From UHGV virus genome UHGV-1363143: DNA of 64,000 nucleotides. One strand, written 5' to 3'. This document shows positions 304-42,794 of the stretch, in pieces. Position 1 is the stretch's first letter. Every line of letters starts with the position of its first letter. This DNA is from a virus. Both the position numbers and the translations under genes were made by a program. Under the pieces are notes generated by a model. That model saw only the letters and a program-made list of their open reading frames with translations, had not been told where the DNA came from and searched no databases.

Positions 304-984
304 TTATTTCACCTCTTTTATTTGAGCCTTTTTCCATGAATATAATCCAAATATAGAATTGCATAGGTAAACTATCCACATAATTAATGTAGCCATCTCT
401 CCTACACCATTTATTAAAGAGAATGCCCACATGATTATTGATACTACATTGATAATAACCCATATCACCCATTGCTCCATAAATTGTTTAACCATTAATA
501 TCATTGCAATGATAGATAGAATTGTTGAAGTTGAATCTAAGAATGGTAGATAATTACCTAAAGACTTTAAGAAGAATCCATAGAAAATAACTAAGGAAAC
601 TGATATTCCGACTAATCTAATTCTTCCTTCTGTGCTAAGACTTTTTGATTCTATTTCTCCATCATTCTCTTCCTTAGCTTTCTTCCACATATAAAGACCT
701 ATAAATTGCATAGGCAAGTAATATAACGCATTTAACATTACTTCTCCATAGAAGCTAGCTTGGTAAGATAAAATAGCATAAGTAGAAACATTAATAGCAC
801 CAAATAAATAATTTAATGACATTCTCTTAGCTACTAGGATTACAGATAAGATACCTGTTAATGAAGATACAATCGCTAAGGGACTATCTCCCCAATAAAG
901 GCTTAAACCTAGTGTAGATAATGTCGCAACTGTTACCCATAAAATTTCATAAAGCTTCCAGTTTTTAAATATTGTTTTGTTCAT
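304..984 (-). CDS. pnuC: PnuC-family nicotinamide riboside transporter
   Basis: 226 aa, multi-pass membrane protein rich in Trp and Tyr. Size and hydropathy pattern are typical of PnuC, and it is operonic with the NMNAT-like gene. Confidence 0.55.
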   Translation of the reverse strand: MNKTIFKNWKLYEILWVTVATLSTLGLSLYWGDSPLAIVSSLTGILSVILVAKRMSLNYLFGAINVSTYAILSYQASFYGEVMLNALYYLPMQFIGLYMWKKAKEENDGEIESKSLSTEGRIRLVGISVSLVIFYGFFLKSLGNYLPFLDSTSTILSIIAMILMVKQFMEQWVIWVIINVVSIIMWAFSLINGVGEMATLIMWIVYLCNSIFGLYSWKKAQIKEVK

Positions 985-1082
985 ATACTTTTCTCCTTCG
1001 ATTTTTGTTTCAAAATTATGTTATGTCTTAAAAAATAAAAAGACTACTTTTACGAAAAGCTTCGCAAAAATAGTCATATTTT

Positions 1083-1112
1083 ATTTATAAAAATAGAGAC
1101 TGCTATGCAGTC
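1083..1112 (-). terminator. rho-independent terminator candidate (GACUGC-AUA-GCAGUC then U-rich tract)
   Basis: A 6-bp perfect inverted repeat overlaps the stop codon of the SNF2 helicase gene and is followed by a U-rich tract on the minus strand. Confidence 0.4.
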
Positions 1113-2944
1113 CCTTTAGCTAAACTCTTAATTAGCTCTAAATCATAATTTTCTTTTTTAGCAACAACTTTTAGTTGAATTTCATCCCAACTCTCTTGTG
1201 CTATTAGTTGATATACAAATACGTTATCATGAACGCTATCAGCTCTTTCTAGTCTACCATGTCTCTGTGTCTGAATAGCATAACTACCAGCTATATCATA
1301 TTCAATTAGATATTTGCATTTAGATAAATTTAAACCTTCAGCTCCAGCATCAGATAACAATAATACCTTATAATCTGGATTATCTCTAAATTTATCATAT
1401 ACTTCAACACTTCTTTCTTGTGATGATAATGTTCCATTAACATATGCTATTTTAATGTTTTTATTGTATTTATGGATCCTCTCAGTTATAACGTGTTGCA
1501 TTCTTTCAAATTTTGAAAATACAGCAACCTTTTCTCCTGATTCAACAATTTCTTCTATTAAATCCATAAATAAATCCATCTTAGGATTCTTCTTTGTTTT
1601 CACTACATACTTTTTAGCAAATTCAGAATCACTATCCTCTAAAAGCTTTGGTTCGTTTGCAATTTCTTGAGCAAATGTTTGTAGTGCTAATATTTGAGCT
1701 CCTATTTTTTGAAGCTCAGGATTTAATTTAGCTTCTAGCTCTGTTCTACATTTAGATCTTATTGCGAAATCTTGTTCCTTCAATTCATCTAATTGTTGCA
1801 TGATTGTATTATTCATATCATACTGTTCTTCTGTAAGTGTAACATACCTTTGAATGACCTGTAATTTAGGTAATTGATCACTTATTTCTTCTTTTGATTT
1901 AATCATAATATATGGTCCAATAGTTTTAGTAAGTTTATTGCCGTTACGCACTCCTGCAATCCTGCCTCTCCCTGCCCATTTAATAAATTCAGATGAGAAT
2001 TTACTCCATGAAGGAAATAAGTCTGGTTTAATAAATTTAAAAATTGAATAAACGTTTTCAGGATTTTTTGTAATAGGAGTAGCTGTTGCTCCAACCTTTA
2101 TTTTTGCTTGGAACTCTTGTAACGCTTTTGATCTTTTACTATCTTTTGAACCTATCATGTGAATTTCATCAGCAAAGATAAAATCTAATTTCATTGAATG
2201 AAGTTGTTGACGAATAGTATCATCAAGTAAGGCTTCATAATTAACTACAAACAAATCATGTCCTTCAAACTGTTCTTTAAACTTAGAGGATATCTTTTCT
2301 TCTAATCTTAAATTCTCAAGTTTAATATCACTGATTTTATCTTTGTCTTTTATCTTGTCTAGTGTTTTAATTAACTTTTTATTCTTGTTAATTTTAGACT
2401 TTGTGTATGCTGAAATACTTGATGGCGATTCAACTGCTACAGCTTTTAAGTCACTAAACTTGCTAACTTCATTAACCCATTGAGTTTTTAATGAAGCTTT
2501 TACAACAATTAAGCCTTTTCCTGAAATCATTCCTCTTTCAGTGGCCTCGATAAACATTCCTATTCCTGATGGAGTTTTACCAGCTCCACAAGGCAATACT
2601 AGTAAAGCATTATTATTATCAAGTACGAATTTAATAGCCTCTCTCTGATATATATATGGCTTTAATTTCATGGATAAGCCTATTTCATCAAGTGATTTAT
2701 CGTATCTTCGTATTTTAGGTAAACTGTGTTCTACACTTATGTTTAAATAACTATAAGCATTGATAAAAGATTGAAGATCTTCTTCATACAGTTCCCATTG
2801 TTTAGTGATAAAATTGAAGTGTACAAATGGATTGTACACAACAATATTTAAAAATTCACTAAGTTCAGTTTTTTTGCCCAAGAATTTCAACCTATATTTT
2901 CTAGAAATAACTCTTTCTATTTTTAATAGTTCCATAGGTTGCAT
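1103..2944 (-). CDS. SNF2/DEAD-DEAH family ATP-dependent helicase
   Basis: Walker A LVLPCGAGKT, DEIH box (FADEIHMIG) and C-terminal helicase motif VI QTQRHGRLER. Confidence 0.75.
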   Translation of the reverse strand: MQPMELLKIERVISRKYRLKFLGKKTELSEFLNIVVYNPFVHFNFITKQWELYEEDLQSFINAYSYLNISVEHSLPKIRRYDKSLDEIGLSMKLKPYIYQREAIKFVLDNNNALLVLPCGAGKTPSGIGMFIEATERGMISGKGLIVVKASLKTQWVNEVSKFSDLKAVAVESPSSISAYTKSKINKNKKLIKTLDKIKDKDKISDIKLENLRLEEKISSKFKEQFEGHDLFVVNYEALLDDTIRQQLHSMKLDFIFADEIHMIGSKDSKRSKALQEFQAKIKVGATATPITKNPENVYSIFKFIKPDLFPSWSKFSSEFIKWAGRGRIAGVRNGNKLTKTIGPYIMIKSKEEISDQLPKLQVIQRYVTLTEEQYDMNNTIMQQLDELKEQDFAIRSKCRTELEAKLNPELQKIGAQILALQTFAQEIANEPKLLEDSDSEFAKKYVVKTKKNPKMDLFMDLIEEIVESGEKVAVFSKFERMQHVITERIHKYNKNIKIAYVNGTLSSQERSVEVYDKFRDNPDYKVLLLSDAGAEGLNLSKCKYLIEYDIAGSYAIQTQRHGRLERADSVHDNVFVYQLIAQESWDEIQLKVVAKKENYDLELIKSLAKGTA

Positions 2945-2952
2945 TCCTCCAT

Positions 2953-3792
2953 TTAGTCATGAACTCCAATTATATCTAGCATTTCTTTACAGATATTAAC
3001 TGTTTCTAGCTCAAGATCGTATTTTTCGCAGATATAAATAGCTGATTTTCTGCTCAACAGGTCTTTAGCCAACGAATCTCTTTCTTCTTTATCTATATAG
3101 CATTGTTCATCTAAAGAATCATATAGTAATTTAAATTTCTTACCAAGTCTTTTGTATACCTTAGGAATATACGATTTTGATACCTCTGCTTCCTCGGCTA
3201 TTTCCGCTTGGCTTTTCCCTTTTATTTTAAGAAGATAAACTCTTCTTTCTTTATCTGTGCAGGCATCTATTAGTTCTAATAAAAGGTAAATAAAGTCAAG
3301 CAAGAACTCTTGAAATACTACTACATCATCTATATCACAATTATCTCCCACTAAATTCAAGAGTTCTATACTTTTCTTATCCGAAGAAGGATTAGGAATT
3401 ATAGAATCTAGCGAATAATTCATCTCATTTCTTAATATGTTATTTTTTTGAGCCTCTAAAGAACGTTTAATCATTCCAAGCTTGGACTCACATACTATAA
3501 ATATCCATGATGACAATCCAGATCTATCTAGATCACATTTATTTACATTTTTAAATATGTGCGCCCATAGCTCATTATGCATATCTTCTAGATCGTATTG
3601 ACCTTTACTCAAAGTATTAATGGCTGGATACCACTTTTTAGATATATCCCACACTAATCTATCATACTCTTCATAAAATATAGTTGTTTCCGGTTCTTTA
3701 CCATCAATAACACACTTCAGAAATTCTTTATTGCTATTAATATTTTTTAAATTCATAATTCTCCTCCCCATTTTACAGACACTATTCTGCAT
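2953..3792 (-). CDS. sigma-70 family RNA polymerase sigma factor-like protein
   Basis: The C-terminus (RVYLLKIKGKSQAEIAEEAEVSKSYIPKVYKRL) resembles the region 4.2 helix-turn-helix. A region-2-like segment lies upstream. Confidence 0.5.
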   Translation of the reverse strand: MQNSVCKMGRRIMNLKNINSNKEFLKCVIDGKEPETTIFYEEYDRLVWDISKKWYPAINTLSKGQYDLEDMHNELWAHIFKNVNKCDLDRSGLSSWIFIVCESKLGMIKRSLEAQKNNILRNEMNYSLDSIIPNPSSDKKSIELLNLVGDNCDIDDVVVFQEFLLDFIYLLLELIDACTDKERRVYLLKIKGKSQAEIAEEAEVSKSYIPKVYKRLGKKFKLLYDSLDEQCYIDKEERDSLAKDLLSRKSAIYICEKYDLELETVNICKEMLDIIGVHD

Positions 3793-5032
3793 ATCTATAC
3801 ATATATTGCTTGTCTATTTCTGTAACAAATCTCGACTCTTGAGTCCTGATATAGCTTCCTTGCTTAAGCGTATAAATAGGCCTTGTAATAAAAAGGAGTT
3901 TTTTTGCTCGTGTAACGGCAACATACATTAACCTTCGTTCTTCTTCGTAATCTGCCTCTGTAGTTGCTCTATATGAAGGTATTACTCCCTCATTTGATCC
4001 TGCAATAATAACAATATTCCATTCCAATCCTTTACTGCTATGCATAGTTAATAACTGTACGCAGTTCTCTTCATCCTGATTTTGTTCTGCAATAGTGCTA
4101 TCTAAATTTATATTGTCGGATAATTCTTCCATACTTTCAAAGTGAGTGGCTAATTCTATTAGCTCTTGAATATTTTCTATTCTATCGTCAGCAATGTTTT
4201 TCTTTTCACTCTCTCTGATATAAGGAATATAACCTGTTATTCTTAGCATAGTCTCTATTGCAATGTCTGGAGTGTTAGTCTCCATTTCTACAGATAGTTC
4301 CCCTACTATATCAAGAAAATCTTTAGCACTTGACTTTGCTTTTCCTGTTAAATTTATTTGCTCTAATGCTTCAATTAAATTACATGAATTTGTTTTTGCA
4401 AAGTCAATTATTTTCTCGACTGTTTTGTCTCCTAGTCCTCTTTTTGGTGTGTTTATTGCTCTTGAGAAAGCAATTGTATCATTAGGGTTTATTATTAACC
4501 TAAAATAAGAAATTATATCTTTAATTTCTTTTCTACTATAAAAGTTGGTTCCTCCTACAATTTTATAAGGAATTCTATATTTAAGAAGAGCATCTTCTAT
4601 TTGTCTAGATAGATAGTTCATTCTATATAAAATAGCTATATCACTGTACTTGTAACCATATTTTTTAACTGATAATTCAATTAATTTAACTATTCTTGCT
4701 GATTCTGCCATAGGATCTTTTTCAGGAAAAAATATAATTGGATTACCTTTTTCATTATTAGATCTTAAGCTTTTTTCTACTAGCTGTTTATTATTACTTA
4801 TTAAACTTTTAGAAGCGTCAACTATCATTGAAGTACTTCTATAATTAGTATTTAATAGATGTACTCTCATGCCAGTAAATATGTTTCTCATATTCATTAC
4901 AGCTTCTATCTTAGCACCTCTAAAAGCATAAATGCTCTGGTCATTATCAGCAATCATACAAATATTTTGGTTTTCTCCTGTAAGAAGATATATTAATCTT
5001 AAATCCATTACAGAAGAATCATGACTCTCATC
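3782..5032 (-). CDS. UvrD/PcrA-family helicase, exon 2 (motif II D-E onward, motifs III-VI)
   Basis: DESHDSSVMDLRLIYLLTGENQNICMIADNDQSIYAFRGA aligns with UvrD DEFQDTN...GDDDQSIYGWRGA, and NTNYRST is also present. Reading frame is continuous with exon 1 after removal of 5033..5613. Confidence 0.75.
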   Translation of the reverse strand, partial: DESHDSSVMDLRLIYLLTGENQNICMIADNDQSIYAFRGAKIEAVMNMRNIFTGMRVHLLNTNYRSTSMIVDASKSLISNNKQLVEKSLRSNNEKGNPIIFFPEKDPMAESARIVKLIELSVKKYGYKYSDIAILYRMNYLSRQIEDALLKYRIPYKIVGGTNFYSRKEIKDIISYFRLIINPNDTIAFSRAINTPKRGLGDKTVEKIIDFAKTNSCNLIEALEQINLTGKAKSSAKDFLDIVGELSVEMETNTPDIAIETMLRITGYIPYIRESEKKNIADDRIENIQELIELATHFESMEELSDNINLDSTIAEQNQDEENCVQLLTMHSSKGLEWNIVIIAGSNEGVIPSYRATTEADYEEERRLMYVAVTRAKKLLFITRPIYTLKQGSYIRTQESRFVTEIDKQYMYRYAE

Positions 5033-5613
5033 CTTTTTTGTAAATCTAATTAATAATATAATGTTTCATCTTTTTAGAATAATCTCCTTTCAACACGAAC
5101 TTACGTTCTTATCATATTTTAGCATATTTCCAATATATACTCAATAATAAATACATTTAACAAAAGTATTTATTATTCACAAAAAAAGCGTAACATTAAC
5201 AATAATATTAGATTTTTCTTACTTTCGCAAGTGTGGACTATATCATCATCTCATAATTACTAATTTTAGCCCTATTGCTAGTTCTAGTTTTATGAGAATG
5301 CCTCTTGTTTCACGCAGAGTTACCTTTCGGCACTTTGCTAGTCTCTGAACCTTCTTCCACCCTGGCATATAATTATATGTTACATTGGAAGCTTGGCTGC
5401 TGATTCCCCATTATTAAGGTCCTTAGCACCATCATATTTAATGATAGCTTTTATTTCAGCTTAGACTATCCTTAGTTATTTTTTCTGCCTTTCGGCGACA
5501 TTCACGCTTGTCCTTACGGACTACGTTGTAGTTAACTTAGGCTTTAGGGATTGTTCCAGCAATTAAAGAGGTACGCACACTACGTCACCGTAATATGGGC
5601 CGATGAGTTCAGC
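5033..5613 (-). mobile_element. ORF-less group I self-splicing intron (581 nt) interrupting the UvrD-like helicase gene
   Basis: The 5' exon ends in U and the intron ends in G. On the minus-strand RNA I can read a P element UUAAUUGCUGGAA, a Q element GGGAAUCAGCAGCC, P7 GUUCAGAGACUAGCA and P7' GAUAUAGUCC. GC content is raised relative to flanks, and an in-frame stop falls shortly after the 5' splice site. Confidence 0.75.
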
Positions 5614-6258
5614 AACGATATATTGGTATTGTCTATTGATTTCAGATTTGACTTCAGGGAATTGTTCTAACAATCTAACCGTCTTATAAATTAAATCATC
5701 AAAATCTACACAGTTATCTTGCATCATTCTGGAATGATAGAGTTGATAGAGTTCTGCGAATTGTCTTTCTATTGTATTGGTTGATTCTCTCAACGCTTGA
5801 CTTGGACTTATTAGCTGACATTTATAATCTGATATTTTCCATAATACCTTATCAGCTTCAAAATTGTAACCAGATGTTTTAATGATTTCTTTCATTAATT
5901 TCTTGCAATCTTCAGTATCGCATATACTAAAAGATTTAGTAAGTCCAATATAATTTGCATATTTTCTTAAAAATCTACTGCATACACTATGGTATGTACC
6001 GACCATTATACTATTTGCTTCAGGTCCTATAGTAGCAGTTACTCTTTCTTTGATTTCCATAGCTGCTTTCTTAGTAAATGTAAATAATATAATTTTATCA
6101 GCCGGTATTCCGCTTTTAATCATGTTAGCTGTTCGAACTACTAAGGTAAAAGTCTTACCAGCTCCTGGACCAGCTATAACCATTGAAGGTCCATGAATAT
6201 CTATTGCGGCTTCCTTTTGTTCATCATTAAGTCTATTAAATAATTCTGATAGTTCCAT
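5614..6258 (-). CDS. UvrD/PcrA-family helicase, exon 1 (Walker A, motif Ia, up to motif II ...QYQYIV)
   Basis: AGPGAGKT Walker A, TFTKKAAMEI motif Ia. Ends with ...RQYQYIV, matching UvrD ...RFTNILV immediately before the DE of motif II. Confidence 0.75.
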
Positions 6259-6307
6259 TTTAAGCCTCCAAATAAAAAAGGGGAGTTGTTTAATACTCCC
6301 TCAATAC

Positions 6308-6511
6308 TTAATTCAATTTTATAGTAACTGGTGATGAGGGATCTGCTTCATAAAATTCTTTTGTTTTTTCTTTTGATACAATTGTTCCACCTAATGCAAG
6401 CTCTAAATCTTTAGTTCTTTCTATACATGAAGTACCTGCAAATCCTTCCTTAGCTTGAAATGTATATCCACCTTTTTCATTTATTCTTATTTCAACTGTT
6501 TCTTTTCTCAT
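6308..6511 (-). CDS. hypothetical small protein
   Basis: 67-aa ORF, operonic with neighbours. Confidence 0.4.
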   Translation of the reverse strand: MRKETVEIRINEKGGYTFQAKEGFAGTSCIERTKDLELALGGTIVSKEKTKEFYEADPSSPVTIKLN

Positions 6512-6520
6512 GATTGCCTC

Positions 6521-7243
6521 CTAGTTTTCAATATCTTTTAATATTGCCTCAACAGTTTCTTTTGCTATTGACGCAAGATTGATATCATAAGAAATAGTAT
6601 TAAAATAATCATCATCATTTAATACATTTCTATTTGGATATCTTTTTAAAACAAGTTTATTCTCTCCAATATTGTTTTCTATTTCTTCTAGTAAAATTAT
6701 TGGAGCATTATCTAGCTTCACTACTACTCCATTTGGAAAATTATCATCATTTCTTTTGAAAGTTAATTCTCCTACTATAGTATTAATTACTAATTCTTTT
6801 ACCTCTGCCATATTTTCAATATAATTTTCAAGATCTGTTTTAAATTTTTGCAACTGTTTTGTTCTATCTTCTGTATTTAGTTGCAAAAACATTAATAGGC
6901 TATCAAAATCATATTTATCAATATAACTCATAGTATTGCTCATAATATTGTATGGCAATATTATCATTTTCACATTATCATAACCATCTTCTTTGTTTTT
7001 CGATTTAATTGCATCCTCTATATTATTTGTATATAAGAATTTAGATAAATCACTATATTTATCATAATATATTAGTGCAGTTGCTTTTGGTAACTCATCT
7101 GATTTATTAACTAATTGTTTAACTATAAATTCAATACTATCGTTTAAATATACTGACAGAGTATGAACGTTATTAATTTTTTGTTTAAGTATAGTAACTG
7201 TTCCTATATCTGTATATAATTTCATCTCGATTTTATCTATCAT
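6521..7243 (-). CDS. hypothetical protein
   Basis: 240-aa ORF. Confidence 0.5.
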   Translation of the reverse strand: MIDKIEMKLYTDIGTVTILKQKINNVHTLSVYLNDSIEFIVKQLVNKSDELPKATALIYYDKYSDLSKFLYTNNIEDAIKSKNKEDGYDNVKMIILPYNIMSNTMSYIDKYDFDSLLMFLQLNTEDRTKQLQKFKTDLENYIENMAEVKELVINTIVGELTFKRNDDNFPNGVVVKLDNAPIILLEEIENNIGENKLVLKRYPNRNVLNDDDYFNTISYDINLASIAKETVEAILKDIEN

Positions 7244-7296
7244 GTATTCGCTCCCCCAATATCTTTAAGGTTATCACTTCAGTCTTTTAAATTATA

Positions 7297-7707
7297 TTAT
7301 ACTACATAACGACTTGCTTGTATAACAATTTCCTTTGTCTTACTATCTATGGATATATCTTCCTTGTTTATTGTCCATCCTTGTTTTTCACATTGAAAAA
7401 TTACATCATGCTTTTTATAAGCTTGTGATAATCTATCTATAAAAGTCTTTTCATCTATTCCTGTACAGAAGAAATCACCAGCTACTTCTAGGTTAGTGTT
7501 TTTTCCTTCTTTTATGAATTTTATTCCTATTGATAATGGCTTCCCATCTCTAACGAATCCAGCGTCAACTTTTTCTGTTATCCAAGTATTTTGAATTAAC
7601 TTAATATCATGGTCTATAGTTAATCCTAAATCTTTTGCTGCTCTTGATAATAATGTTTTTTTACAGTTTACTAATACTTTTGAATTATAAGTTGTTAAAT
7701 GTGACAT
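7297..7707 (-). CDS. hypothetical protein
   Basis: 136-aa ORF. Confidence 0.45.
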   Translation of the reverse strand: MSHLTTYNSKVLVNCKKTLLSRAAKDLGLTIDHDIKLIQNTWITEKVDAGFVRDGKPLSIGIKFIKEGKNTNLEVAGDFFCTGIDEKTFIDRLSQAYKKHDVIFQCEKQGWTINKEDISIDSKTKEIVIQASRYVV

Positions 7708-8033
7708 TGAGATCTCTCCTTTTGTTTTAAAAAATATTTATATTTCTTCCCATTTAGGGATACATACATATTATTATGACTTGTTTTACTTAAGTGAAGT
7801 TTTAAAGCTGGTATATAATGTTTAGCAGCAAATACTTCTCTTAAACCATTTTTCGAATTATAGAATATTGGCATATATTCTATTTGATTACTTTCTAAAT
7901 AATCTAAAATTATTACTTTTGTTAATGTGCTATGAGGTTTCCCATTCATACTATATAATCCAAATGCTTCAGCTATTTCTTTTGGATATAACATATGCTC
8001 TTCAGTTTTTATTTCTAAATAAAACTTATACAT
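7695..8033 (-). CDS. hypothetical protein
   Basis: 112-aa ORF. Confidence 0.45.
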   Translation of the reverse strand: MYKFYLEIKTEEHMLYPKEIAEAFGLYSMNGKPHSTLTKVIILDYLESNQIEYMPIFYNSKNGLREVFAAKHYIPALKLHLSKTSHNNMYVSLNGKKYKYFLKQKERSQCHI

Positions 8034-8410
8034 TAGAATGGATCATCTTTTTGATTAGATATATATTTATTGATTAAATCTTTATACATATCTTCTCTCA
8101 TAGCTAAATAATCTTGTTCAGAAATAAATGGTGGTCTATTTCCTTCAAAAATAGGTTTTACTAATGATTCTAATATTTCTTTTACAAGAAAAAATCTTAC
8201 TTGTTCTCCCATAACATCATTAAATATTTTTTTAAATGCAGCTAAACTCGATACCTTTTTCACAAATTCATTTGCAAGATTTTCATATTCTTTGATTTCT
8301 TTATATCCATTTGCTTGTACTATTTTTAACTTATTTAATGCTTCTGGATTATCAGCATTAGCTACTGGCTCTGTTTTTTTTAAGCTTATGTTAATAACAT
8401 TTGATGACAT
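8033..8410 (-). CDS. hypothetical protein
   Basis: 125-aa ORF. Confidence 0.45.
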   Translation of the reverse strand: MSSNVINISLKKTEPVANADNPEALNKLKIVQANGYKEIKEYENLANEFVKKVSSLAAFKKIFNDVMGEQVRFFLVKEILESLVKPIFEGNRPPFISEQDYLAMREDMYKDLINKYISNQKDDPF

Positions 8411-8420
8411 ACATTACCTC

Positions 8421-10079
8421 CTAACCTCTTTTTAAATCATCTATTGAAAGAATTCTTGATATTTCTTTATTATTGTTAATATTACAACCATATTCATTGA
8501 TTAATTGATTACTAAATCTAGCTCTACTTTTTGCATATTCATTTAGTGCTGCAATTTTTTCTCTAGATGATTTGGCTACAGGAATAACTTCAACACAAGC
8601 TTTTTGAATATCTTCTTGTGTAATTTCTTTATTGCCATCTTTTCTGTATCTAGAAAAAGCTTTCTTTAATGTATTCTTAACAGCTTCTTTGATTTCTGCT
8701 CCAGTAAAATCATTTGTTATGTCAGCAGCATAAGTTAATAAAGAATCGTCTAAACTTTTTCCTAACTTATTAAAATGTATATTAAATATATCTTTTCTTT
8801 CATCCTTTTCAGGTAATCCAAAATACCATATAGCATCTAATCTACCAGCTCTAGTAAGTTCAGGTGGTAATTGTGACACATCATTTGATGTCATAACCAC
8901 AAATACTCCATGATCTTCTGCTAAGAATTCTAATATAGCTCCTATTGATCTTGCCATAGTACCTGCATCACTTGAACCACTTGATTGCATACCTGATAAA
9001 GTTTTTTCTACTTCGTCAATCAATAATACACATGGAGCTGTAGCCTTTATCATTCTAATAGCTTGAGCCATATTTTTTTCTGAACTACCCACTTTTGAAT
9101 CTAAAATTTTTGACATATCTAATTTTAAAAATGGAAGGCTCATTGATGTAGCTAAAGCTTCAGCTAATAAAGTTTTTGCAGATCCTGGTACACCTAATGC
9201 TAAATATCCTTTTGGTTTTACACACCCAAATTCCATTGCCTCTGGTGTCATAGCATCCATTACTTCATCAATCCAAGATTTAAAACCAGCATTTCCTCCA
9301 ATTTCATCAAGACTTGAATTTGGGATTTTATAATCTAGCACATTTGATTTTTTTACCAGCTCTATCTTATAATTGCTAATTTCATCTACAGAGATTGTTT
9401 TATTTTTAACCAATGATATTCTAAAACTACACGCTATTTCTTCCAATGTCAATCCTTTACAGGAATTTATTATCAATTCTTTATCCTCTTCACTGACTGG
9501 AATGAAGCCTGGTGTTCGTTGACCTGCCATTAAAGCTGCATTAAGAATGTTCCTAATTAAATTTTCGTCAGGTGTATTATAATCAACTACTGAGAAGATT
9601 TTTTCATGTTCTATTGGTATCTCTGTTACTGGAGAAATTATAATAATTGTATTATAGTTTAGGTACTTTCCTTCAACTATATCTCTAAGCATTCTTTTTA
9701 TATTTGGATTATCTATCATAAGATGAAAGTCTTTTAATATGAAGATATTATTTTTATCTTCAATTACAGTTTGTCCATCCTCTTTCATCATTTCAATAGT
9801 TTCATCATCCATTTCTATACCTCTAGTAATGTCGTATATAGTTTTTAATAATTTATCGACACCAATAGAAGGATCTAGTTTATTTTCTCTATTTGAAGTT
9901 AATTCTACCTTCTTTATACCAGTAGCAAATGAATGAACATATATTGGCATAGGTATTCTTAAAGCTGTAGAAACTTCTTTTATGTCATTAATAACTGCTT
10001 CTTCTTCATATGTATTTATCCAAATACATTTTGCCTTAGCGTTTATTAAATTTAAAACTTCGTTCATACACTCTCTCAT
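8421..10079 (-). CDS. AAA+ family ATPase with large N-terminal domain
   Basis: Walker A GVPGSAKT, Walker B LLIDEVEK, sensor region MTSNDVSQLPPELTRAGRLD. Confidence 0.7.
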   Translation of the reverse strand: MRECMNEVLNLINAKAKCIWINTYEEEAVINDIKEVSTALRIPMPIYVHSFATGIKKVELTSNRENKLDPSIGVDKLLKTIYDITRGIEMDDETIEMMKEDGQTVIEDKNNIFILKDFHLMIDNPNIKRMLRDIVEGKYLNYNTIIIISPVTEIPIEHEKIFSVVDYNTPDENLIRNILNAALMAGQRTPGFIPVSEEDKELIINSCKGLTLEEIACSFRISLVKNKTISVDEISNYKIELVKKSNVLDYKIPNSSLDEIGGNAGFKSWIDEVMDAMTPEAMEFGCVKPKGYLALGVPGSAKTLLAEALATSMSLPFLKLDMSKILDSKVGSSEKNMAQAIRMIKATAPCVLLIDEVEKTLSGMQSSGSSDAGTMARSIGAILEFLAEDHGVFVVMTSNDVSQLPPELTRAGRLDAIWYFGLPEKDERKDIFNIHFNKLGKSLDDSLLTYAADITNDFTGAEIKEAVKNTLKKAFSRYRKDGNKEITQEDIQKACVEVIPVAKSSREKIAALNEYAKSRARFSNQLINEYGCNINNNKEISRILSIDDLKRG

Positions 10080-35915: not shown

Positions 35916-35990
<75 letters not shown>

Positions 35991-36785
35991 CTGTAGTTCC
36001 ATAATTCCAGCGTCCGTATGGACCTGGAGATCTCCTTCTATCTTAGATAGATGAGCTAATGTAAGCACCACATTTTATAATCCCTTGCATGGATTGGGCA
36101 GGCACCATTATTTTTACATGCATGGTTGCATTGACCTAGCTTACTTTTTGTTCTTTCGGTCTTATTGATTATTACTATCCCACTCGTGAATAGCATATTT
36201 GTTTGAAACAATCGCCTGCACAATGCAAGCCCCAGAAAGAGTTTATCTTTCAAAATTAATGCAAGGTGGGGTGGCGTATCCCACATCTCTAACCATAACA
36301 ATATATGTAGTATAGACTGCCTGTTTCTACTTCTTGCATTTTTATATCTAATTGCTTACTTGAAAAACACGAGCTAATTACATTAGCTACTAAAACTCAT
36401 AAGCATAAATATACCTTCTTATAAGAGTTCCTAATCTATGTCTAAATAAGAAGTATATTAGTTTCATAAGGATATAGATTAGGTTTCACCTTACTTTTTA
36501 TTATTGCTTGAAAAAACCCTAAAAATTACTAAGCAATATATATATTCTTCTCACTTCCGAAACCAGCACTCCATGTCCTTCGAATATATAGTTTTTTTGT
36601 TTCGCTGATCTGGTCCTCTATGCAAAACTTTAAAGGGAAATTTGCTTACCGCCACAGTTCCTTCCTGCTCGTCCATAAGCTATTAAGTAGATAAATTACT
36701 CCTACTTAACTAGTGCGTCTCCAGTGAGCATAGTAAATCAGGCCAATCAAATCAGCTAAATACCAGAGGCTTGAGAGGTTCTATT
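35991..36785 (-). ncRNA. ~0.8-kb ORF-free, GC-enriched structured spacer between tRNA-Asn and tRNA-Thr; candidate large ncRNA (GOLLD/ROOL-like class hypothesis)
   Basis: No credible ORF. The only track ORF, 36056..36301, is Cys/His-poor and has no RBS. GC content is well above that of the coding background. The block is embedded in a co-directional tRNA array. Confidence 0.3.
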
Positions 36786-36859
36786 TGGAGCTCCTACTCA
36801 GAATCGAACTGAGAACAGAAGATTACAAGTCTACCGTTTTACCTTTAAACTATAGGAGC
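36786..36859 (-). tRNA. tRNA-Thr (UGU)
   Basis: Acceptor GCUCCUA/UAGGAGC, T-arm CUCAG-UUCGAUU-CUGAG, anticodon loop CUUGUAA. There is one U-U mismatch in the anticodon stem. CCA encoded. Confidence 0.6.
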
Positions 36860-37015
36860 ATATAATACTTTCGGTGTGCTACAGAAATCTAAGTTTCTGT
36901 TAATAGGCAAGGCTGTCTATATCAGGTATTCAGTAATTATGTACACTTTTAACTGAACCATACTATATATCCCTACACGCTACTCTTAACTATAAGAACA
37001 CCGAAAATATTATAA

Positions 37016-37090
37016 TGGTACTCCATGGGGGACTCGAACCCCCGATACACGATAGAAAGTCGTGTGGCTTAACCACTTGCCGAATGGAGC
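37016..37090 (-). tRNA. tRNA-Glu (UUC), tentative
   Basis: Acceptor GCUCCAU/AUGGAGU, T-arm GGGGG-UUCGAGU-CCCCC, perfect anticodon stem CACGA/UCGUG, loop CUUUCUA. Position 37 is an unusual U. CCA encoded. Confidence 0.55.
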
Positions 37091-37169
37091 ATAATTTGTG
37101 CTATCTCTTTTAGCTTGTACTTCGCCAAGGATGATAGCTATCCTTATCTGTACAAATTACAGATTTCTC

Positions 37170-37240
37170 TGGTGCAGATTGCTGGAATCGAACCAACCCT
37201 TATAATCTTATAGAAAACGCTCTACCTTGAGCTAATCTGC
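37170..37240 (-). tRNA. tRNA-like gene with intact acceptor, D- and T-arms but no foldable canonical anticodon arm
   Basis: Acceptor GCAGAUU/AAUCUGC plus ACCA, D-arm GCUC-AAGGUA-GAGC, T-arm GUUGG-UUCGAUU-CCAGC. The anticodon region UUUUCUAUAAGAUUAUAAGG contains a UAUAAG duplication, and no 5-bp stem with a 7-nt loop can be formed. Confidence 0.4.
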
Positions 37241-38269
37241 ATATTATATTTCCAGAGCTTTCAGATCCTATCTCTGGTACTCAACTTTTGCAGCATTATT
37301 GATTCTCTGCTTATCCACATTCTCTTGAATGTATTGAGTTATGCCTGCCTTGTTTAATGAGTGGCTTATCTCATCTAATAGTACACTACTCTACACCATT
37401 GATTATATCAACCTTGCGGGCTGTTCAGGCTGCTACCCCTTATACGCTCTCCGATATAGAACAATCAAGCTTTTGCGAAGCTATCATGCGCTTCATTCAC
37501 TTTTCAGTGTGAAGCATTAAGACACTTTCATGCACTACGAGGATGAACTTTCGCTTTTATATAGAATTAATATCTGTAAATTCTTAAATATTGTTTTATT
37601 TCCCAAAACATATAGCTTAAATTCATCATTCATTAAATTTTCAAACTGTAGATGTGTCATCCTATCAGCTCGCTTCCCTTTTGAGGAAGTAAATACTGGA
37701 CACCTACATAGCTTTCACTCAACTAAGTTACTAACTGGTAATAAATCATACTCTAGGATACCTCCGTCTCTCAACTTCTAAGGTCCTATTTCATTTTTAT
37801 TACTGGCCAATGCTCTTGCCTGTTAAACTCGAACTACTAACCTTCTGCTATAAATAGTTTATTTCATTAGTTTTGGTGTGTGCTATCTGATTACCAGTCA
37901 GAAACTCCTTCAGAGAGTATATCCCCTACTTTCTTACCAGCGTTGCCCATAAGCGAGCTTTCGCACCTAACTTATAAAACCTTATCCAATAATCGTCTTT
38001 ATCTCTTCCGCCTACTGAATAACATTTAAATTTATGCAGATTGCTTGAATTAACCTAATATTTCAAGGCGAGAATTTGTTAAATTCCCTTTACGCACATC
38101 ACTGTACGCTATTCATGTCAAGCCATGTTTACTTATTTTTTTTATAGAACCTAGTACAGATTCTTGTATGTAATTCCTACCTCTATTACATACTAGGCTC
38201 TTGCCTACCGATGTTTTCCTTATTTAAAACTAAGTACTGAAAAGAAAACTCATAACCAAAAATCGTACT
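37241..38269 (-). ncRNA. ~1.0-kb ORF-free GC-enriched structured spacer between tRNA-like gene and tRNA-Lys; candidate large ncRNA(s)
   Basis: Only a weak 83-aa plus-strand ORF with no RBS falls here. Composition matches the other large spacer and lies within the tRNA operon. Confidence 0.3.
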
Positions 38270-38345
38270 TGGTGAAGGTAGAAGGGTTTGAACCTTCGGC
38301 CCCAGCATTAAAAGTGCTATGCTCTACCAACTGAGCTATACCTTC
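38270..38345 (-). tRNA. tRNA-Lys (UUU)
   Basis: GAAGGUAUAGCUCAGUUGGUAGAGC..., anticodon loop CUUUUAA, T-loop UUCAAAC, CCA encoded. Confidence 0.9.
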
Positions 38346-38352
38346 ATATTAT

Positions 38353-38429
38353 TGGTAGTGGATATAAGAGTCGAACTTATCACCTTCTGCGTATCAGGCA
38401 GATGCTCTAACCAAATGAGCTAATCCACT
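38353..38429 (-). tRNA. tRNA-Ile (GAU)
   Basis: AGUGGAUUAGCUCAUUUGGUUAGAGC..., anticodon loop CUGAUAC, CCA encoded. Confidence 0.9.
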
Positions 38430-38435
38430 ATATTA

Positions 38436-38520
38436 TGGTGGGAACTGATGGAGTCGAACCACCCGAGCTAAAGCAACAGATTTACAGTCTGCCCCGCTAC
38501 CATCTACGGTATAAATTCCC
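38436..38520 (-). tRNA. tRNA-Tyr (GUA), type II with long variable arm
   Basis: Acceptor GGGAAUU/AGUUCCC, anticodon loop CUGUAAA, long variable arm, T-loop UUCGACU, CCA encoded. Confidence 0.8.
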
Positions 38521-38547
38521 GTATTGACATTGTTAATTGGCTAAATT

Positions 38548-38577
38548 ATTATAATTGTAAATGTACTATACTTACAA
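38548..38577 (-). promoter_or_regulatory. candidate sigma-A-type promoter (TTGTAA, 18-nt spacer, TATAAT) reading into tRNA-Tyr/Ile/Lys
   Basis: Minus strand -35 TTGTAA (plus 38572-38577) and -10 TATAAT (plus 38548-38553), located 30-60 nt upstream of tRNA-Tyr. Confidence 0.35.
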
Positions 38578-38614
38578 AGAACTAGATCAATCTTCGGATT
38601 GGTCTTTTTCTTAT

Positions 38615-38701
38615 TGGCAGGGGCTGTAGGATTCGAACCTACGTGGTGTTGTGCACAATGGTTTTGGAGACCACCGCCCTCGACCTCTAGGCAAAACCCC
38701 T
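38615..38701 (-). tRNA. atypical 87-nt tRNA: type II (long variable arm) architecture but anticodon CCA (Trp reading)
   Basis: Acceptor AGGGGUU/AGCCCCU plus G plus CCA, T-arm GUAGG-UUCGAAU-CCUAC, anticodon stem GUGGU/ACCAU with loop CUCCAAA. A 15-nt extra arm (UGUGCACAACACCAC) follows. Alternatively GUGGU pairs with the distal ACCAC. Confidence 0.45.
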
Positions 38702-38836
38702 GTAAATCTCCCGATTAGTTTAAAGACATTTATGGGACTGGTCATTAGAGAGGTCTTATGTATAAATTAAAACGTTATGCATAAATATATTATGTTAACA
38801 TCTATAAAAAGACTACTGATTTGAAAAACTTTTTTA

Positions 38837-38923
38837 TGGCGGAGAGTCTGGGACTCGAACCCAGAAGCCATTACTGACCAACAGTTTTCAAGACTGTCTG
38901 ACTACCAATTATCACAACTCTCC
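38837..38923 (-). tRNA. tRNA-Ser (UGA), type II
   Basis: Acceptor GGAGAGU/ACUCUCC plus G plus CCA, anticodon arm ACAGU-CUUGAAA-ACUGU, long variable arm, T-loop UUCGAGU. Confidence 0.85.
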
Positions 38924-39021
38924 ATGTTTATAGGAGAAAACGAAATAGGTGATAGGAATTGAACCTACACTTACTGCCATCCCTATCTCTAGCTGGCCTT
39001 GCTTCATTCTCCTGTTGCAAC

Positions 39022-39096
39022 TGGCGGAGGTGGAAGGGATTGAACCTTCGAATGATGGAATCAAAATCCATTGCCTTACCACTTGGCGACACCTCT
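39022..39096 (-). tRNA. tRNA-Gln (UUG)
   Basis: AGAGGUGUCGCCAAGUGGUAAGGC, closely matching the bacterial tRNA-Gln D-arm. Anticodon loop UUUUGAU, T-loop UUCAAUC, A1-C72 mismatch, CCA encoded. Confidence 0.8.
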
Positions 39097-39297
39097 ATAT
39101 AAAATGGCAATTTTACCGTTTGCCAAACGTTCTATGGTTTATACAAAAACTCATATCGTAAAATTTAAACGGGCTTAAGTGCCCTAAATTCTGGCATTTC
39201 ACCACGGGTATTTAGCAACCCAGGATTTTTATTATTGAATCTAATAAATTAAGATCCGTTCTAAGCACTGCAAAAAAATCTTAAAAAAATTTCGCTT

Positions 39298-39373
39298 TGG
39301 TCGGAGTTACAGGACTCGAACCTGTGATCTCATGGTCCCAAACCATGCACCTTACCATCTAGGCCAAACTCCG
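39298..39373 (-). tRNA. tRNA-Pro (UGG)
   Basis: CGGAGUUUGGCCUAGAUGGUAAGG..., anticodon loop UUUGGGA, T-loop UUCGAGU, CCA encoded. Confidence 0.9.
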
Positions 39374-39382
39374 ATATATAAA

Positions 39383-39474
39383 TGGCGGAGGACACAGGAT
39401 TCGAACCTGCGGAGGAACTTTCGTCCCTCGAATGCTTAGCAAGCACCTGCCTTAAACCTCTCGGCCAATCCTCC
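39383..39474 (-). tRNA. tRNA-Ser (GCU), type II
   Basis: Acceptor GGAGGAU/GUCCUCC plus G plus CCA, anticodon loop UUGCUAA, long variable arm CGAGGGACGAAAGUUCCUCCG, T-loop UUCGAAU. Confidence 0.85.
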
Positions 39475-39564
39475 ATATTAATAGCTCATTTTGGTCAGTT
39501 GAGCTAAACTGTAGTCTATAAGACTAAAAAATGAACATTGGAATTTAATATTGAATTGAATTAG

Positions 39565-39641
39565 TGGCGACTCACAAGGGGATCGAACCCTCGACCTCTG
39601 GCGTGACAGGCCAGCACTCTAACCATCTGAGCTAGTGAGCC
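39565..39641 (-). tRNA. tRNA-Asp (GUC)
   Basis: GGCUCACUAGCUCAGAUGGUUAGAG..., anticodon loop CUGUCAC, T-loop UUCGAUC, CCA encoded. Confidence 0.9.
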
Positions 39642-39647
39642 ATATTA

Positions 39648-39736
39648 TGGTGTCGTGAGAAGGATTCGAACCTCCAACCACCTGAGTCTTGTTAATGGAG
39701 CTCCCTCAGTGCGTATACCAATTCCGCCACCACGAC
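39648..39736 (-). tRNA. tRNA-like gene with 18-nt anticodon loop (11-nt insertion); anticodon undetermined
   Basis: Acceptor GUCGUGG/UCACGAC plus A plus CCA, D-arm GCG-GAAUUGGUAUA-CGC, T-arm GGAGG-UUCGAAU-CCUUC. A perfect 5-bp stem CUGAG/CUCAG encloses GGAGCUCCAUUAACAAGA. Confidence 0.4.
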
Positions 39737-41839: not shown

Positions 41840-41943
41840 GTTAGGTCCTTTCTTTTATAGAGATTAGGAGTTGCTAGATGATAAAACTGTTTAAAGCTAA
41901 TACATAAAACAATGACGAAACAGTTTATGCTATTTTATTACAT

Positions 41944-41972
41944 AAAAAAAAGATTATAAAAAATATAATCTT
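41944..41972 (-). terminator. rho-independent terminator (9-bp perfect inverted repeat AAGAUUAUA/UAUAAUCUU then U8)
   Basis: Perfect 9-bp stem with a 5-nt loop, followed by a U-run on the minus strand. It lies downstream of the 42070-42440 structured block and of gene 42600..42794. Confidence 0.5.
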
Positions 41973-42069
41973 AGTAATTCTGTGCTTTTCCCTTGTATTT
42001 CGAAAGAATCTTTTATTTTTTTTTATTCACAAGTAGTCTATTATTTTTTAGCAACATAATATAAAAACG

Positions 42070-42440
42070 TTAAGCGATTAACAGTACATATTATGGAGCA
42101 TACACCAAAGATGAATGCAGTTGCCCTATTACTTAAACATGGGAACCTTGCAAAAGGAGTCTTGCGAAGACTATAAAGATTTCCTACCGAAAGGTAAGGA
42201 TACAGAAAGCACAGCTGATGCAAAATAGTGCCTCTGGACAGTAAATGGCCATTCCCCTAGCACATGGTCGTTCAGGTTGAGACGTGATGACGACGTAATG
42301 GTCAGGAGGGAGTTCTGGGTGCATAGATGCACGGGAACTATAAGCAATTACATGGACAGAACCAATGTAGCAAAAGCTTATAGGTGTTTAACACATAACT
42401 GCTAGGGTGTAAGATAGTGATACGATTGACATATACGAAG
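42070..42440 (-). ncRNA. GC-enriched ORF-free structured element, ~370 nt, at the divergent junction; candidate ncRNA or long structured 3' UTR
   Basis: GC content is roughly twice the local background. Local hairpins include AGUCUU-GCG-AAGACU and a GNRA-capped CCUACC-GAAA-GGUAAGG. The minus-strand terminator at 41944-41972 is immediately distal. Confidence 0.3.
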
Positions 42441-42599
42441 CACAGATTATAGTTATTCTTTATTGATTGTAAAATTATATAGTATTTTGTATTTTTTTAC
42501 AATTGGTAAGGAAATAACTATATCCGTTCCACTCCGAGCATGCCGAAGTACAGGTGCTTTTCGCTTCTCTATACAAAACGTTCATAATTTTAAACGCTC

Positions 42600-42794
42600 C
42601 TACTCATCGACTGTATCATACGCCTTGGTTCTCTCCCAACCGTACTCTTTCCCACTAACGACTTCTAGTTTTTCTGTTTCAGCTATCTCAAGTATAGAGT
42701 TGCTGATCCTTCTCATAATATCTTCTCTCTGAGATTCTGTCTTATCAGCAAAATCAATCTCAACAAGAAGCTGGTATATTGGTTGTTTTGCCAT
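42600..42794 (-). CDS. hypothetical small acidic protein
   Basis: 64 aa. An AGGAGG RBS sits 7 nt upstream of the ATG. Confidence 0.45.
   Translation of the reverse strand: MAKQPIYQLLVEIDFADKTESQREDIMRRISNSILEIAETEKLEVVSGKEYGWERTKAYDTVDE

Follow-up and report, generated by a model that had tools for sequence, protein, structure and literature searches.

A predicted endonuclease-free group I intron in motif II of a UvrD/PcrA-type helicase gene of an uncultivated phage

The stretch of DNA analyzed here (the window) comprises 64,000 nucleotides (nt) of the virus genome UHGV-1363143, and the locus under study is a helicase gene on its minus strand. The list of open reading frames (ORFs) places two minus-strand ORFs at this locus, 5563-6258 (231 amino acids, aa) and 3782-5008 (408 aa), with a 554-nt ORF-free gap between them. 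An earlier note, made from the sequence alone, had read the two adjacent ORFs as one collinear UvrD/PcrA helicase, and protein comparison bears this out. The joined 631-aa product proposed there matched the Pfam families PF00580 (UvrD-helicase, E=1.4e-68) and PF13361 (UvrD_C, E=3.7e-70) and aligned with PcrA (1pjr) as a single collinear stretch over residues 5-623 (E=4.8e-117). UvrD and Rep structures also aligned to this product, the E values for PcrA, UvrD and Rep ranging from 1e-98 to 5e-117. Direct reading found GPGAGKT (motif I, Walker A), IVADESHD (motif II) and DNDQSIYAFRGA (motif III) in this order, the first in exon 1, which ends in ...QYQYIVA, and the third in exon 2. Taken as a whole, the locus is very probably to be explained by a 578-nt self-splicing group I intron of IA type in motif II of a UvrD/PcrA-type helicase gene of superfamily 1A (SF1A). 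We infer catalysis and splicing in vivo from the sequence family, the covarying structure and the boundaries of this element.

Search of positions 4900-5750 alone (851 nt) against Rfam revealed the group I intron family RF00028 at 5216-5620 on the minus strand, scoring 53.7 bits (E=1e-12; gathering score, 50) over the full model (1-253). A group I covariance model thus scores above its gathering threshold in a local search, in line with the class of intron named in the earlier note. The intron was not reported by two Rfam scans of the whole 64-kilobase (kb) window, one in gathering mode and one in permissive E-value mode. The speed filters of Rfam lost this above-threshold intron at 64 kb, and other structured RNAs of this window, or of similar scans, may be lost likewise; a standard scan of a window of this length misses the intron, and such genes are consequently mis-annotated in a systematic manner. 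Guanine-cytosine (GC) content is 0.40 in the ribozyme core, 0.30-0.32 in the exons, 0.30 in the window and 0.20-0.21 in the 3' tail of the intron. The 581-nt interval (0.336) had been described as GC-enriched, which holds for the core but not for the GC-poor tail.

Thirteen intron copies were used for the analysis, namely the window and 12 metagenome relatives (L001, L006-L012, L109-L112), together with one intron-less locus (L004). Structure, the percentage given for the P10 pairing and tail statistics refer to nine copies, and boundary, motif and ORF counts to all 13. The 13 copies share the insertion site. Comparison of the copies revealed GCU (Ala) directly before the intron in 13/13, followed by (G/A)AACUCAU(C/U)GGCCC, and a variable Val codon before it (GTT, GTA in L008 and GTC in L009). 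The intron-less DNA of L004 reads GTT GCA|GAT GAG. The three bases that the earlier note assigned to the start of the intron are GCT in the window, an in-frame Ala codon, and with this Ala included (632 aa) motifs II-III align gap-free to UvrD (4c2u) and PcrA (1qhh_B). All nine aligned uninterrupted homologs, intron-less or intein-bearing, carry Ala before DE; P0001, P0003, P0006, P0007, P0012 and P0026 (uninterrupted) have IVADE(S/F)HDSS, the wider pattern being Y(I/V)(V/T)-A-DE(S/F)HDSS. The invariant GCU, the variable Val codon, the Ala of the homologs and the removal of the gap together place the intron at 5033-5610 and exon 1 at 5611-6258. The last intron base is G in 13/13 copies. Hence the predicted ligated junction is ...ATCGTTGCT|GATGAGAGT..., or, written longer, ...CAATATATCGTTGCT|GATGAGAGTCATGAT... 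(GUU-GCU|GAU-GAG), and the predicted product is a protein of 632 aa, ...YIVA|DESHD..., with the intron between Ala216 and Asp217.

The boundaries of the earlier note differ from these by one codon. There the 5' splice site was set after GUU (5614|5613), which implies a 581-nt intron, the junction ...ATATCGTT|GATGAGAGT... and a 631-aa product, ...YIV|DESHD. In the window this GUU can pair with the GGC of the intron guide described below (G-C, U-G, U-G), with a U-G wobble there, and the P10 pairing with exon 2 is identical under both placements. The pairing is broken by GTA in L008 and GTC in L009, whereas the GCU three bases on never varies; every uninterrupted homolog has the Ala before DE, and the 631-aa version needs a gap in the PcrA alignment exactly at the junction, unlike the 632-aa version. 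A splice site after GUU is thus extremely improbable, and the site after GCU (5611|5610) is adopted here. The collinearity of the spliced protein with PcrA stands, apart from the one-residue gap of the 631-aa version. That the 5' exon ends in U is true at the corrected site (U5611 in 13/13 copies) and fails at the former site in two of 13 copies (A in L008, C in L009). The terminal G (5033), the in-frame stop after the 5' splice site (TAA at 5563-5565) and the location in the DExx box, that is, motif II, were all correctly described.

Both exons are open and conserved in all copies. Exon 2 opens with the codons for DESHDSSV, eight codons upstream of its first Met (5008), and this peptide is kept across copies through synonymous changes (CAT/CAC, GAT/GAC, TCT/TCC/TCG/TCA). 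Sequence reading found neither an in-frame start codon nor a Shine-Dalgarno sequence upstream of DESHDSSV in exon 2. The closest purine-rich run is GAGAG, which stops about 16 nt short of the ATG at 5008; by contrast, the starts of the helicase and of the downstream sigma-factor gene have GGAGG-type sites. These observations bear on the possibility of a naturally split helicase, in which the 231-aa and 408-aa ORFs are translated separately and assemble while the intervening RNA stays in place. Gene callers annotate exactly these two ORFs in public assemblies of every relative, as a split gene would lead one to expect. However, DESHDSSV would then be conserved at the protein level with no in-frame start and a poorly placed GAGAG, and the catalytic DE of motif II would remain untranslated. 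The 15 read-through codons after Ala216 overlap strands of P1, P2 and P3, where the changes fit RNA pairing, and the intervening RNA is a covariation-supported ribozyme with a guide that pairs with both exon ends. Separate translation of the two ORFs is on these grounds hardly credible. All public assemblies of this phage clade annotate the gene as two ORFs; under the intron model, the corrected junction yields a single 632-aa protein.

For the secondary structure, the nine copies with 9-nt exon flanks were aligned (alignment A2), folded with RNAalifold and redrawn by hand with P1 and the P3/P7 pseudoknot. The hand-drawn P1-P8 model contains 93 pairs in 17 helices (Table 1), and 97.1% of its cells are paired, compared with 35-43% when the partners are slid by 1-3 columns. 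Compensatory changes on both sides were found for 48 of the 93 pairs, and none of 500 shuffles reached any of the observed measures. An invariant U5611-G5601 wobble in P1 defines the 5' splice site, and all 13 copies have GCU/GGC; the +1:+9 pair of P1 covaries, with four G-C, eight A-U and one U-U (n=13). P10 was found unprompted by RNAalifold, with 98% of cells paired, and comprises 6 base pairs (bp) in 12/13 copies. Its outermost pair changes from C-G to U-A in two independent copies (L008, L110), in which exon 2 has the synonymous GAA for GAG. Here a guide sequence clearly covaries with a synonymous substitution in the exon. One continuous guide, CUCAUC-GGC (5607-5599), aligns both exon ends, and its pairing with both fixes the 3' splice site at 5033|5032. 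An alternative P1 between exon CGUUGCU and GGUGACG (5590-5584) was rejected, since covariation assigns the latter segment to the GNRA-capped P2 hairpin.

The loop of P2 stays GNRA across copies (GUGA, GCGA, GCAA), the hairpin occurring as UACG-GUGA-CGUA, UGCG-GCGA-CGCA, UACC-GCGA-GGUA and UGCA-GUGA-UGCA. The in-frame TAA sits just 3' of the P3 5' strand. Most pairs of the P5 extension show compensatory changes. P7 is invariant in the nine-copy alignment and so is uninformative on covariation; the strings that the earlier note picked out as P and Q and as P7 and P7' are the actual strands of P4 and P7. Because a covarying P7.1 lies between P7 and P3', the predicted intron is probably of IA type, although a large P5 extension is not a textbook feature of IA introns. 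P8 is about 35 nt longer in the window (5247-5300) than in the 97%-identical L001 (3959-3990) and forms a helix in both, CAUUCUCAUAA...UUAUGAGAUG in the window and CAUCUUUU-UUU-AAAAGAUG in L001. Such a length gap between 97%-identical phages points to rapid turnover of insertions and deletions at helix tips. An extra insertion of about 45 nt was seen in L009 in the second arm of the P5 extension (about 3690-3750; A2 columns 185-226); it consists of a GC-rich hairpin followed by a T run and is terminator-like, inside the ribozyme.

Table 1. Features of the helicase gene and its predicted intron in the window
Feature	Position	Strand	Details
Helicase exon 1	5611..6258	-	216 codons, M1-A216; ORF list and translation
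Helicase exon 2	3782..5032	-	416 codons and stop; starts DESHDSS (DE of motif II)
Group I intron, 578 nt	5033..5610	-	starts GAACUCAUCGGCCC, ends ...CAAAAAAG, terminal G at 5033; RF00028 and covariation
P1	5599..5613	-	GCU (5613-5611) and intron GA (5610-5609) pair with UCGGC (5603-5599); loop ACUCA
P10, guide part CUCAUC	5602..5607	-	pairs with first six bases of exon 2, GAUGAG (5032-5027)
P2 hairpin	5576..5597	-	9 bp, GNRA loop GUGA; compensatory A-U/G-C and G-C/C-G/A-U
P3	5301..5571	-	5566-5571 with 5301-5306; encloses P4-P6; pseudoknot with P7
P4 and P5	5398..5561	-	P4 5556-5561 with 5398-5403 (P and Q of the earlier note); P5 5546-5549 with 5406-5409
P5 extension, two-arm, about 135 nt	5418-5540	-	GNRA-capped hairpins; invariant A-rich strand GAAAAAAU
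P6 hairpin	5354..5391	-	6/6 pairs with compensatory changes
P7	5235..5345	-	5339-5345 with 5235-5240; 6 bp and bulged A; guanosine-binding site; encloses P7.1, P3 3' strand and P8
P7.1 hairpin	5314-5338	-	25 nt, GAAA loop, directly between P7 and P3'; 7/9 pairs compensatory
P8	5247-5300	-	5295-5300 with 5247-5252
P9 hairpin	5218..5231	-	CUUGC-GAAA-GUAAG; Rfam model ends just after, at 5216
AU-rich P9 extension, 184 nt	5034..5217	-	GC about 0.20; closed by 9-bp long-range helix
Sigma-70-like motif	5116..5144	-	TTGAGT (5144-5139), 17 nt, TAAAAT (5121-5116), upstream TG; predicted start near 5109
Shine-Dalgarno-like AAAGGAG and 7-codon mini-ORF MKHYIIN*	5046..5090	-	sequence reading

The 3' tail of the intron is a P9 extension in which the closing helix, AAAUCUAAU (5215-5207) with AUUAGAUUU (5050-5042), sets the terminal G5033 beside the core. 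Its interior contains a 12-bp AU hairpin (5143-5178) and a GAAC-GUAA-GUUC hairpin (5097-5108). The minimum free energy fold of the window tail has z=-3.9, and the tails of 7/9 copies have z of -2 or lower against dinucleotide shuffles. In 8/9 copies, pairing between the first 60 nt and the last 45 nt is more stable than in at least 97% of shuffles. Among clades the tail varies from 107 to 202 nt, and its sequence is unalignable between clades. The extended P9 peripheral domains suggested in the earlier note are thus found as a P9 hairpin and a closed extension, the interior of which is not conserved as RNA. The mini-ORF of the tail has only three codons in the 97%-identical L001, and both it and the Shine-Dalgarno-like sequence are absent from other clades. 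Because the mini-ORF is neither conserved in length nor present in other clades, the pair is most likely a remnant or a chance occurrence.

Several observations weigh against a functional intron. RF00028 clears its threshold narrowly and only in the local search, and P1 holds only three exon base pairs and is thus short. Individual copies carry defects as well, namely a U-U mismatch in P1 (L111), a mismatch in P7 (L007) and a P10 of only 4 bp (L011). A decayed intron that no longer splices, with the helicase a pseudogene in this phage lineage, would agree with the lack of an endonuclease, with the Rfam score barely above threshold and with the long AU-rich stretch that separates the core from the 3' splice site. 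Yet compensatory substitutions keep the core helices in copies whose host proteins are only 63-100% identical, and P1, P10, the U-G wobble and the terminal G are retained in 12-13 of 13 copies. The ends of the tail pair, which sets the 3' splice site beside the core, and the two exons have stayed open and conserved in every copy. Decay of this kind is consequently judged highly unlikely, and a splicing-competent intron is preferred.

The splicing pathway proposed for this intron is modeled on the established group I mechanism. The precursor mRNA would fold into the P3-P9 core, and the GGC of the guide would pair with the final GCU of exon 1 to form P1, with the U5611-G5601 wobble as the 5' splice site. 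An external guanosine, bound in P7, would attack at this site, after which the CUCAUC of the guide would pair with the GAUGAG of exon 2 (P10). The long-range helix that closes the P9 extension would keep the terminal G5033 near the core, and exon ligation would yield GUU-GCU|GAU-GAG and the 632-aa helicase. The in-frame stop, TAA, lies 15 codons inside the intron and would halt ribosomes before they reach the core.

Protein searches identified uninterrupted full-length homologs (P0001 with 70% identity, P0006 and P0007 with 58% and P0012 with 53%), an N-terminally truncated, uninterrupted homolog (P0003, 66%), about 20 exon-2-only proteins of 406-444 aa (63-100% identity) and three homologs of about 1000 aa with an intein domain. 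The carriers form a clade of uncultivated phages of about 190-245 kb, the window being derived from a phage of about 240 kb. Most relatives share the gene order AAA ATPase, DUF1257, DUF2997, helicase, a protein of about 270 aa and SNF2 helicase. Megablast of the gene against sequenced phages gave no nucleotide match; among annotated helicases, unsplit PcrA-like genes of Bacillus jumbo phages come closest, with at most 37.5% identity.

Consistent with the earlier note, no homing-endonuclease ORF was found in the intron, where the longest ATG-initiated reading frame has 40 aa in the window and none exceeds 55 aa in the 12 relatives. Among the nine neighboring window ORFs scanned with Pfam and PHROG (304-10079), none encodes an endonuclease. 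The neighbors of the helicase gene are DUF2997, DUF1257, AAA ATPase, sigma factor, SNF2 helicase and PnuC, and the relatives likewise have no adjoining endonuclease. When viral and metagenome collections were scanned for the invariant P1/P2 signature, only the known phage of about 241 kb and a 1.2-kb fragment (L014) were recovered, with no endonuclease-bearing copy among the matches; L014 is without core motifs, and 91/93 metagenome stretches were chance matches. Neither paralogous intron copies nor other P7/P4 motifs were found in the window. The earlier note had taken the missing endonuclease to suggest a degenerated or trans-mobilized element. A recent loss in this genome does not agree with the data, as 13/13 copies, with exon-2 proteins 63-100% identical, are without the ORF. 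Trans-mobilization is unsupported, since no endonuclease gene adjoins the helicase.

In a neighbor-joining tree of the exon-2 region, built without support values, all split genes fall in one clade. The intron-less P0001 and P0003 are nested inside this clade, and the split P0069 branches outside that pair. Such a topology is compatible with a single gain and a later precise loss, or with homing between relatives. The intron appears to have been inherited mostly vertically in the clade, with one probable precise loss, as far as the compared sequences indicate. In several relatives, the SNF2 helicase gene, which lies two genes downstream, contains or adjoins LAGLIDADG-type ORFs (L007 6116-9257, L010 6083-9121, L012 6090-8831). 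The SNF2 gene is called in pieces in L007 and L010 and is intact in the window (1103-2944); these ORFs and the fragmented gene suggest further introns or inteins with endonucleases.

Analysis of the tail also revealed a sigma-70-like promoter motif (Table 1) that points towards exon 2 and the downstream sigma-factor gene. It is the one recurrent element of the tails and has the form TTGnnn, a spacer of 16-18 nt (17 in most copies) and TAnnnT. By a strict criterion the motif is present in 6/9 of the first tails, compared with 1.3 expected. Four further copies from other sub-clades, fetched after the hypothesis had been formed, all have the motif (4/4; expected 0.28, P=2e-5). Overall a site with its -10 element ending at most 90 nt from the 3' splice site occurs in 10/13 copies against 1.24 expected from shuffles, and 0/400,000 simulations reach 10, the copies being related by descent though their tails are otherwise unalignable. 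The motif probably starts transcripts that run through exon 2 into the sigma-factor/SNF2 block, an activity predicted from its sequence. Several points weigh against a working promoter. Three of 13 tails are without a strict match, and this AT-rich genome has about 0.38 strict motifs per kb per strand, which makes them common. Non-coding DNA, 18% of the window, is not enriched in them (it has 6 of the 24 on the gene strand), so that the motif alone is weak evidence. Finally, the intron-less relative L004 shows no counterpart of the promoter at this place, and the promoter is therefore not indispensable.

Two explanations of the motif were considered. Tentatively, the endonuclease-less intron may persist because its P9 extension has been co-opted as a working host-type promoter. 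Transcripts would start about 75 nt before the 3' splice site and, having neither exon 1 nor the core, would be unspliceable; they would express the sigma-factor/SNF2 block or an N-terminally truncated helicase, and the intron would be a regulatory cassette under selection and not merely a tolerated parasite. An active promoter would mean that a host regulatory function has kept the intron in place. Alternatively, the promoter-like site, the Shine-Dalgarno-like sequence and the mini-ORF could be the fossil of a lost homing-endonuclease gene with no present function, which is likewise possible though doubtful. T4 intron endonucleases have their own expression signals inside introns. The order in the window of promoter-like site, AAAGGAG and 7-codon ORF is that expected after deletion of an ORF, the intron-less relative has no equivalent promoter, and intron ORFs are known to have regulatory signals of their own (PMC3073962). 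On the other hand, the tail has diverged beyond alignment, yet 10/13 copies keep a -35/-10 pair about equally far from the 3' splice site, and this persistence argues for present selection. Furthermore, only the window and L001 have the Shine-Dalgarno-like sequence and the mini-ORF, and no endonuclease-bearing copy occurs among the 13 loci or in the viral and metagenome pattern scans.

Group I introns in conserved phage genes, ORF-less introns and collaborative homing have been reviewed (PMC3984707), and introns in helicase, ribonucleotide reductase, endolysin and polymerase genes, together with an intein in the Twort helicase, have been reported for Staphylococcus myoviruses (PMC5526547). DNA-metabolism genes of phages, helicase genes among them, are thus already well known to contain group I introns (PMC3984707, PMC5526547); what is new here is the phage lineage and the host gene. 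Comparison with Firmicutes myovirus introns (Staphylococcus Twort/K-like, Listeria LPJP1, Brochothrix A9 and Enterococcus) revealed 70-75% nucleotide similarity over P3, P4 and the P5 extension (intron nt about 42-229). These matches lie between fragments of split genes of DNA metabolism or transcription, such as the ribonucleotide reductase subunits in A9 and after the rpoB fragment in LPJP1, and the A9 ribonucleotide reductase site matches RF00028 (39 bits, E=1.6e-8). The intron of the window differs from them in host gene and insertion site, has no similarity to them outside the 5' half of the core, and carries a long hypervariable P9 extension with a promoter-like motif that is unmatched there. 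The host phage is unrelated to these myoviruses at the nucleotide level, its helicase being at most 37.5% identical to that of any sequenced phage.

The T4 nrdD (sunY) intron, as Michel et al. reportedly described it in 1990, has a compact core, a long 3' extension and a distant 3' splice site picked by P10 (and P9.0), and its extension houses the I-TevII endonuclease ORF. The intron analyzed here resembles it in having a 6-bp covarying P10 and an extension closed by a long-range helix, and differs from it in that the extension is without an ORF. Patchy presence, with intron-less P0001 and P0003 nested among intron-bearing relatives, is shared with collaborative homing (PMC3984707); unlike in that system, no endonuclease gene lies next to the helicase in the window or its relatives. 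Analysis of the homologs also identified inteins. P0008, P0036 and P0051, which are 48-58% identical to the window protein, carry an intein of about 360 aa (PF14890) inserted in motif III (DNDQ|CLLPGT...VVHN|S/C-IYxFRG), 31 residues downstream of the intron site. The intein is spliced as protein and not as RNA and occupies another site, and no sampled genome has both elements. Hence catalytic motifs of the same gene family are the target of two selfish elements in different genomes, motif II of an intron and motif III of an intein.

This study adds a well-supported endonuclease-free group I intron in a catalytic motif of an SF1A helicase from an uncultivated jumbo-phage lineage. Its only unusual feature is the promoter-like motif conserved in a fast-evolving tail. 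No description of a conserved promoter-like site in an ORF-less intron was found in the literature searched, the search being limited and not proof of novelty.

Further features were observed near the helicase gene and elsewhere in the window. The ORF at 2953-3792 on the minus strand, directly downstream of exon 2, encodes a sigma-factor homolog of about 270 aa (PHROG 1740/351, E about 1e-10; weak Pfam matches to Sigma70_r4_2 and r2). Translation of this gene probably begins at the ATG at 3756, preceded by GGGGAGGAG, and not at the ORF start, which overlaps the helicase stop. A terminator-like hairpin, GGGAGT...ACTCCC with a T run, lies upstream of the helicase at 6281-6300 on the minus strand; the 22 nt that separate it from the start codon contain no promoter-like site. 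Among the relatives this hairpin is present only in L001 and L011, and it was therefore dropped as a general feature of the gene.

A non-coding gap of 623 nt lies between divergent ORFs at 41840-42462. Its GC content is 0.43-0.51 at about 42095-42440, where several GNRA-capped hairpins occur, and a promoter-like site, TTGACA-16-TATAGT, at about 42427-42454 on the plus strand faces a doubtful low-complexity ORF (42463-42732). The gap gave no match to an Rfam family, and its fold has a z of only about -2 on either strand. Whole-window Rfam scans identified a GOLLD RNA at 37263-37708 (171.8 bits) and a skipping-rope RNA at 36258-36340 (58.2 bits), and the GOLLD RNA indicates that the window comes from a GOLLD-carrying phage of about 240 kb. 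About 15 transfer RNA genes are clustered with these two RNAs at 35929-39736, all on the minus strand within about 4 kb.

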